From NCBI RefSeq assembly GCF_044324875.1, contig NZ_CP172185.1: DNA of 64,000 nt, one strand, 5' to 3'. The first letter of the stretch is position 1; every line of letters starts with the position of its first letter. Below, piece after piece: positions 875 through 58,073 of the stretch. The notes beneath the pieces are model-generated. The model was not told where the DNA came from, did no database searches, and worked only from the letters and a program-made list of their open reading frames with translations. Source of the DNA: Escherichia coli. GTDB taxonomy: Bacteria > Pseudomonadota > Gammaproteobacteria > Enterobacterales > Enterobacteriaceae. The position numbers and the translations under genes were made by a program.

Positions 875-2458
<1,584 letters not shown>

Positions 2459-2466
2459 CAGAAAAG

Positions 2467-2539
2467 AAAAAGGCCACTCGTGAGTGGCCAAAATTTCATC
2501 TCTGAATTCAGGGATGATGATAACAAATGCGCGTCTTTC
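2467..2539 (-). ncRNA. micA: MicA (SraD) Hfq-dependent small RNA
   Basis: Minus-strand sequence reads GAAAGACGCGCATTTGTTATCATCATCCCTGAATTCAGAGATGAAATTTTGGCCACTCACGAGTGGCCTTTTT, matching MicA as remembered, including the terminal GGCCACTCACGAGTGGCC hairpin plus U-run; lies in the gshA-luxS spacer, antisense to both. Confidence 0.85.
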
Positions 2540-2607
2540 ATATACTCAGACTCGCCTGGGAAGAAAGAGTTCAGAAAATTTTTAAAAAAATTACCGGAGG
2601 TGGCTAA

Positions 2608-3123
2608 ATGCCGTTGTTAGATAGCTTCACAGTCGATCATACCCGGATGGAAGCGCCTGCAGTTCGGGTGGCGAAAACAATGAACACCCCGCATGGCGAC
2701 GCAATCACCGTGTTCGATCTGCGCTTCTGCGTGCCGAACAAAGAAGTGATGCCAGAAAGAGGGATCCATACCCTGGAGCACCTGTTTGCTGGTTTTATGC
2801 GTAACCATCTTAACGGTAATGGTGTAGAGATTATCGATATCTCGCCAATGGGCTGCCGCACCGGTTTTTATATGAGTCTGATTGGTACGCCAGATGAGCA
2901 GCGTGTTGCTGATGCCTGGAAAGCGGCAATGGAAGACGTGCTGAAAGTGCAGGATCAGAATCAGATCCCGGAACTGAACGTCTACCAGTGTGGCACTTAC
3001 CAGATGCACTCGTTGCAGGAAGCGCAGGATATTGCGCGTAGCATTCTGGAACGTGACGTGCGCATCAACAGCAACGAAGAGCTGGCGCTGCCGAAAGAGA
3101 AGTTGCAGGAACTGCACATTTAG
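2608..3123 (+). CDS. luxS: S-ribosylhomocysteine lyase (autoinducer-2 synthase)
   Basis: 171-aa ORF with the HTLEH metal-binding motif and GCRTGFY; recognised as LuxS. Confidence 0.97.
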
Positions 3124-57954: not shown

Positions 57955-57989
57955 ATCAATAAAAAAGGCCCCCCGATTTGGGAGGCCTT
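57955..57989 (-). terminator. pheA attenuator terminator
   Basis: Minus strand AAGGCCTCCCAAATCGGGGGGCCTT followed by TTTTTTATT, between pheL and pheA. Confidence 0.6.
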
Positions 57990-58025
57990 ATTGTTCGTCT
58001 TCGCATTCTGTTTCACACGACGAAA

Positions 58026-58073
58026 CGCCTCCCATTCAGGGGAAGGTAAAAAAGAATGCGAAGAAAAACGGTG
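58026..58073 (-). CDS. pheL: pheA leader peptide (Phe-rich, 15 aa)
   Basis: Minus strand ATGAAACACACACCGTTTTTCTTCGCATTCTTTTTTACCTTCCCCTGA translates to MKHTPFFFAFFFTFP with seven Phe codons. Confidence 0.85.

Follow-up and report, generated by a model that had tools for sequence, protein, structure and literature searches.

An antisense element in the gshA-luxS spacer of Escherichia coli is almost certainly the known small RNA gene micA

The spacer between gshA and luxS in the Escherichia coli genome studied here carries, on the strand opposite to that of both genes, an element which, judged from its sequence, is almost certainly the micA gene of E. coli. It is the same MicA (SraD, psrA10) gene as the one already described, now found in another strain of the species. 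Our analysis covered a window of 64,000 nucleotides (64 kb), the whole stretch of DNA that was analysed, in which the coordinates of the flanking open reading frames place the spacer at 2459-2607 and give it a length of exactly 149 bp, as had been claimed by a previous reading made from the sequence alone (hereafter the sequence-only reading). The locus is made up of the following features.

902-2458, plus strand: gshA (glutamate-cysteine ligase), from the open reading frame list and the annotation of identical E. coli records.
2608-3123, plus strand: luxS (S-ribosylhomocysteine lyase), from the same two sources.
2596-2600, plus strand: the luxS Shine-Dalgarno sequence GGAGG, read from the sequence.
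2467-2539, minus strand: micA, 73 nt according to the K-12 annotation, with its +1 at 2539, from Rfam RF00078, K-12 b4442 and identity to K-12.

Two kinds of comparison identify the element. Firstly, the whole 64-kb window was scanned against Rfam at gathering thresholds, and MicA was one of the five families returned. The match to RF00078 occupies minus-strand positions 2539 to 2468 and is full-length (model positions 1-75 of 75, E = 1.4e-11), its score of 83.9 bits being twice the gathering score of 41. A poor score against this covariance model, by which the sequence-only reading had proposed that the region be checked, would by its own account have refuted it, and the outcome was the opposite. 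Secondly, the curated record of strain K-12 MG1655 lists micA (b4442) as a 73-nt ncRNA located between luxS and gshA on the opposite strand. Window positions 2440-2620 are identical to MG1655 in 179 of the 179 columns compared, promoter and flanks included, and the K-12 micA annotation maps onto the window as 2539 to 2467. The K-12 annotation and the Rfam match together bear out the 73-nt minus-strand element that had been described, and the label of known biology that it had been given was right, the gene being identical to K-12 micA. Compared with K-12 MicA (RF00078, b4442), no difference was found in the sequence, in the position and orientation between gshA and luxS, or in the promoter, the hairpins, the terminator and the ompA-complementary 5' region. 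Of 5426 complete E. coli genomes, 5423 carry the 701-bp stretch around micA, many of them with 100% identity. All the evidence that we gathered is consistent with MicA, and none contradicts it.

The annotation of this locus varies between records: RefSeq record NZ_CP023820.1 (our locus L002), which is 100% identical here, lists gshA and luxS and has no micA feature. Automatic annotation of E. coli genomes can, then, miss micA in a sequence that does not differ from that of K-12.

The +1 of micA (2539) is separated from the luxS ATG (2608) by 68 nt, and its 3' end from the gshA stop codon by 8 nt; the 3' end falls somewhere inside a run of uridines, and the length read from the sequence is 72-73 nt. 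The sequence-only reading had the element ending about 70 nt before luxS, which gives the distance correctly but not the polarity, because the edge nearest to luxS is the 5' end (+1) of the RNA. Four parts can be recognized in the transcript.

2516-2539, minus strand: 5' target-binding region (MicA nt 1-24), which the Rfam consensus structure shows as single-stranded.
2497-2516, minus strand: stem-loop 1, nt 24-43 (CAUC-C-CUG / AAUU loop / CAG-A-GAUG), from the Rfam structure line and the minimum free energy (MFE) fold.
2490-2496, minus strand: A/U-rich linker AAAUUUU between both hairpins, read from the sequence.
2462-2489, minus strand: Rho-independent terminator with stem GGCCACU/AGUGGCC (2489-2472), loop CACG and U-rich tail UUUUUCUUUU, from the terminator scan.

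The unstructured 5' stretch reads GAAAGACGCGCAUUUGUUAUCAU. Both hairpins are reproduced by the MFE fold of MicA, whose energy of -21.2 kcal/mol (z = -3.06) was equalled by only 1 of 200 dinucleotide-shuffled sequences. The claim of a Rho-independent terminator was confirmed by the terminator scan, which called a single minus-strand site with a stem at 2489-2472 of 7 pairs (5 of them G-C), a loop of 4 and the tail TTTTTCTTTT. It has been reported from footprinting that Hfq protects the linker between the hairpins, and the U tail is probably bound as well (review PMC4618604). Hfq binding and Hfq-dependent target regulation are taken from that literature (PMC4618604) and would be expected for the present RNA, in which the AAAUUUU linker and the poly-U tail are both found.

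The position of the second hairpin raises the question of whether it could be nothing more than the transcription terminator of gshA, the remainder of the spacer being a plain luxS leader with no separate RNA gene. The hairpin does start 14 nt after the gshA stop codon, and its palindromic stem forms on either strand; on the plus strand, however, the stem is followed by AAAATTTCAT, the U-tail lies on the minus strand, and the terminator scan called no plus-strand terminator at the MicA hairpin. Moreover, luxS transcripts described in the literature continue across the hairpin on the plus strand (PMC2956633), and an RNA gene of its own is indicated both by the full-length covariance-model match and by a conserved sigma-E promoter oriented for the minus strand. 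We regard a mere gshA terminator as having practically no chance of being the right explanation; the Rfam match and the published MicA Northern blots already refute it.

The promoter that would drive transcription of micA, and the tract upstream of it, were located as follows.

2546-2572, minus strand: sigma-E-type micA promoter with -35 box GAACT (2572-2568), N17, -10 box TCTGA (2550-2546) and 6 nt to +1, from a pattern scan and conservation.
2575-2593, minus strand: A/T-only tract upstream of the micA -35 box, within the luxS 5' UTR, read from the sequence.

Upstream of +1 the minus strand carries TGAACTC, 16 nt, TCTGA, 6 nt and the G at +1 (2573-2539), which is the sigma-E layout of a GGAACTT-like -35 box, some 16 nt of spacer, a -10 box resembling TCTGA/TCNAA and some 6 nt to +1, and the pattern GAACT-N17-TCTGA has its single occurrence in the 64 kb here (2572-2546), against 0.13 expected. 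Inspection of the minus strand for a sigma-E promoter, as the sequence-only reading had advised, thus located one running from 2572 to 2546, correctly spaced from +1 and conserved in Enterobacterales. An AT-rich element upstream of the micA -35 box has been noted before (PMC1851643); within the tract seen here, positions -45, -41, -40 and -36 are conserved at 81-95%. Beyond it lies, on the other strand, the luxS Shine-Dalgarno sequence, and therefore the micA promoter sits inside the luxS 5' UTR. Transcription of micA in K-12 has been shown to be strictly sigma-E-dependent and to respond to envelope stress and ppGpp (PMC1851643), and for the present strain we infer the same sigma-E dependence from the sequence identity to K-12.

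The conservation of the locus was studied by searching one genome per species with an exact 20-mer corresponding to MicA nt 8-27, which gave at least 120 loci. Among the matches listed are those of Escherichia, Salmonella, Citrobacter, Enterobacter, Pantoea, Erwinia, Serratia, Rahnella, Yersinia, Hafnia, Edwardsiella and other genera. The invariance of nt 8-27 is circular, these being the nucleotides of the search 20-mer, and the informative parts are nt 1-7, the promoter and the 3' half. Synteny is maintained throughout: among the matches listed, all 112 of the 112 loci for which both flanks are available have the element placed between homologues of gshA and luxS, on the strand opposite to both, and in the loci with one flank it is antisense to the remaining neighbour (8 of 8 among the matches listed). 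The gap between +1 and the luxS ATG has a median of 71 nt and a range of 67-176 in the related loci among the matches listed.

The promoter was scored on 113 distinct Enterobacterales sequences among the matches listed, anchored at +1 and ungapped. No sequence of this set departs from AAC at -32 to -30, from TC at -11/-10 or from A at -7; a single one lacks the T at -9 (112 of 113 have it), and 98-99% of the distinct sequences have TT at -27/-26. Between -25 and -17, in the spacer, the information content is no more than 0.1-0.7 bits. Two fixed blocks at a fixed spacing with a free spacer between them have the look of a conserved sigma-E promoter, and this pattern is in keeping with the alignment of five species published by Udekwu and Wagner (PMC1851643). 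MicA nt 1-7, which lie outside the search pattern, are invariant in 112-113 of the 113 sequences among the matches listed.

The structure of the RNA is conserved as well. Over 94 distinct sequences among the matches listed, 99.2% of the stem cells are paired, whereas shifting the partners by 1-3 columns lowers the figure to 29-52%. In stem-loop 1 the paired fraction is 97.5-100% (the same 94 distinct sequences among the matches listed), with one compensatory change from G-C to A-U, and the innermost pair of the terminator covaries, being A-U in 80, U-A in 9 and G-C in 1 of the distinct sequences among the matches listed. Compensatory changes were seen at 2 of the 14 stem pairs and 10 of the 14 never vary (94 distinct sequences among the matches listed); the covariation is modest because most stem pairs never vary, and with so few varying pairs it supports the MicA structure without proving it.

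The related sequences also differ from one another by indels of one or two nucleotides, which fall in the loop and linker. Short insertions occur in addition directly after MicA nt 27, at columns 28-32 of our alignment A2, and measure 5 nt in L031 (Erwinia), L058 (Pantoea) and L115 and 3 nt in L038; they extend the CAUCAUC run at the junction between the seed and the first hairpin.

Both a minus-strand ORF at 2395-2541 (48 aa) and a plus-strand ORF at 2480-2620 (46 aa) appear in the mechanical ORF list for this region, and a small protein might therefore be proposed as the product. The indels of 1 and 2 nt in the loop and linker of relatives would break any such frame, and conservation tracks the stems and the seed rather than codons. 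Furthermore, the sole minus-strand ORF starting with ATG begins two bases upstream of +1: its start codon (2541-2539) straddles +1, so that the transcript starts at the third base and lacks the start codon. It is extremely improbable, in our opinion, that the locus encodes a protein.

Having set aside these two readings, we return to MicA and to the targets on which it would act. MicA nt 7-24 pair with positions -22 to -5 of the ompA leader of K-12, across the Shine-Dalgarno sequence, with an energy of -21.7 kcal/mol, which was equalled by 4 of 1000 dinucleotide-shuffled 5' regions; the mean of the shuffles is -14.1 kcal/mol (sd 2.25). This computed MicA-ompA pairing is the published interaction. 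A calculation by RNAduplex of full-length MicA against the whole ompA leader gave -44.5 kcal/mol for a sprawling duplex with huge internal loops, which was matched by 38 of 1000 shuffles; since the calculation takes the two RNAs to be unfolded, no meaning can be attached to this structure, and the 5' region alone was used instead.

Previous work has shown that MicA is Hfq-dependent and that ompA, phoP and a group of envelope-related mRNAs are among its targets (PMC4618604). Applied to the present locus, RNA polymerase containing sigma-E would start at G2539 on the minus strand and stop at the hairpin and U-tail (2489-2462), producing an RNA of 72-73 nt. Its unstructured 5' part (about nt 7-24), aided by Hfq, would pair with the translation-initiation regions of ompA, phoP, lamB, ompX and other mRNAs, and this pairing would block ribosome binding and speed up mRNA decay, with a reduced load of outer-membrane proteins under envelope stress as the predicted outcome. 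What we computed ourselves is the sequence identity, the family membership, the terminator, the promoter motif and its conservation, the synteny and the ompA complementarity; sigma-E dependence, Hfq dependence, translational repression and RNase III processing belong to the literature on K-12 and would hold here by virtue of the identical sequence.

The relation of MicA to its neighbour luxS concerns a further promoter on the opposite strand.

2262-2276, plus strand: published sigma-S luxS promoter P1 inside gshA, with extended -10 CTATGATT (2262-2269) and its transcription start, a G at -332 (2276), from PMC2956633, the bases being present in the window.

Three luxS mRNA species have been described, the longest of which has as its first base a G at -332 relative to the AUG and comes from a promoter of the sigma-S type lying within gshA (PMC2956633). 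The placement of P1 on the coordinates of the window, where the -10 is present and the G would correspond to 2276, is our own inference. Since micA lies antisense inside the long luxS 5' leader, MicA is perfectly complementary to the long luxS transcripts. Transcripts from the sigma-S promoter within gshA would thus be expected to pair with MicA over its full length, and RNase III to cut the duplex, generating a shorter luxS mRNA. In line with this scheme are the published observations that upon MicA overexpression both long luxS forms fall and a short form, R3, accumulates (Udekwu 2010, PMC2956633), that R3 is absent in an rnc mutant, and that the 5' end of R3 overlaps MicA by 14-15 nt (both PMC2956633). 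The sequence-only reading had spoken of a potential for cis-antisense interplay with luxS transcripts; the interplay stands, but to call it potential is to understate it, given that processing dependent on MicA and RNase III was demonstrated in 2010 (PMC2956633).

On the basis of this processing of the long luxS transcripts that cross micA (PMC2956633), and of the antisense placement beside luxS in every locus examined among the matches listed, it could be argued that the main role of MicA here is the cis-antisense control of luxS, which encodes a quorum-sensing enzyme, and not the trans regulation of envelope mRNAs. Several lines of evidence make this distinctly unlikely. First, the amount of LuxS protein does not change when MicA is overexpressed (PMC2956633). 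Second, it is trans targets such as ompA to which the invariant 5' region corresponds. Third, only 31 of about 112 distinct sequences among the matches listed have the exact -10 octamer of P1, many genera having lost it, whereas none of them lacks micA or its sigma-E promoter. Finally, a review published in 2015 still called the cis mechanism of MicA on luxS unknown (PMC4618604). Among the papers searched from 2011 onward, we found no primary study that settles what the MicA/luxS overlap does.

The pattern of P1 conservation deserves a comment. Of the 47 sequences among the matches listed that encode Ser-Met-Ile at the P1 site, 36 use TCT as the Ser codon, a statistic that ignores phylogeny and was compiled to see if P1 is kept beyond the demands of the GshA protein. 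Read-through across micA may be confined to Escherichia and its near relatives, with micA and its sigma-E promoter being general, but the data are only suggestive in this respect. In this connection, it is conceivable, if rather unlikely, that the long sigma-S-driven luxS leader serves as a natural full-length anti-MicA decoy and that RNase III destroys the MicA paired with it. The idea fits the findings that LuxS protein is unchanged, that an artificial AntiMicA RNA titrates MicA (PMC2956633) and that the 2015 review lists the cis mechanism as unknown. If it were true, control would run from the luxS leader to MicA rather than from MicA to LuxS, and the threshold of the sigma-E response to envelope stress (ompA, phoP and others) would be determined by stationary-phase transcription of luxS; given the partial conservation of the P1 -10, the effect would be confined to Escherichia and close relatives.

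A sigma-70-like match (ATGATA-18-TATACT, 2517-2546, plus strand) inside micA was considered as a luxS promoter. One such match was found against 0.7 expected, which is chance level, and a start near 2553 corresponds to neither published luxS 5' end; the candidate was dropped.

E. coli possesses other small RNAs of the same regulatory type, RybB and MicL, which like MicA have a sigma-E promoter, depend on Hfq and use a 5' seed to repress the mRNAs of outer-membrane proteins or lipoproteins under envelope stress. They differ from MicA in being unrelated in sequence, residing at other loci and not being known to lie antisense to a neighbour's leader, and neither RybB nor MicL gave a match in the 64-kb window at the Rfam gathering score. 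With respect to luxS, the arrangement resembles CopA/CopT of plasmid R1, which shares with the MicA-luxS pair the perfect complementarity to a transcript of the opposite strand and the cleavage of the duplex by RNase III (PMC2956633). Unlike CopA/CopT, however, the main documented targets of MicA are trans-encoded and Hfq-dependent, and MicA overexpression leaves LuxS protein unchanged.

As a discovery, the result carries little weight, since a gene already described has been correctly recognized: knowledge of MicA goes back to 2001, that of its ompA mechanism to 2005, that of its control by sigma-E to 2006-2007 and that of its antisense relation to luxS to 2010. It does illustrate that a model reading raw sequence can recognize a 73-nt small RNA, its strand and its promoter. 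There is also a practical side to the overlap, in that micA can be disturbed by deletions or tags introduced at the 5' side of luxS, a trap documented for biofilm phenotypes of Salmonella (PMC4618604).

Apart from MicA, the window contains several other RNA genes and elements. On the minus strand, ssrA (tmRNA) occupies 39730-40092, with a full-length Rfam match of 292.8 bits and the tag peptide ANDENYALAA; ssrA is a common integration site for prophages and islands. The Phe leader (the pheL attenuator) lies on the same strand at 57959-58084 (full-length Rfam match, 132.2 bits), and the small RNA RyfD lies on the plus strand at 61390-61528 (full-length Rfam match, 125.3 bits). The single tRNA of the window, at 31775-31850 on the plus strand, has the anticodon CAT and was called Met by ARAGORN; a lysidine-modified tRNA-Ile would show the same anticodon.
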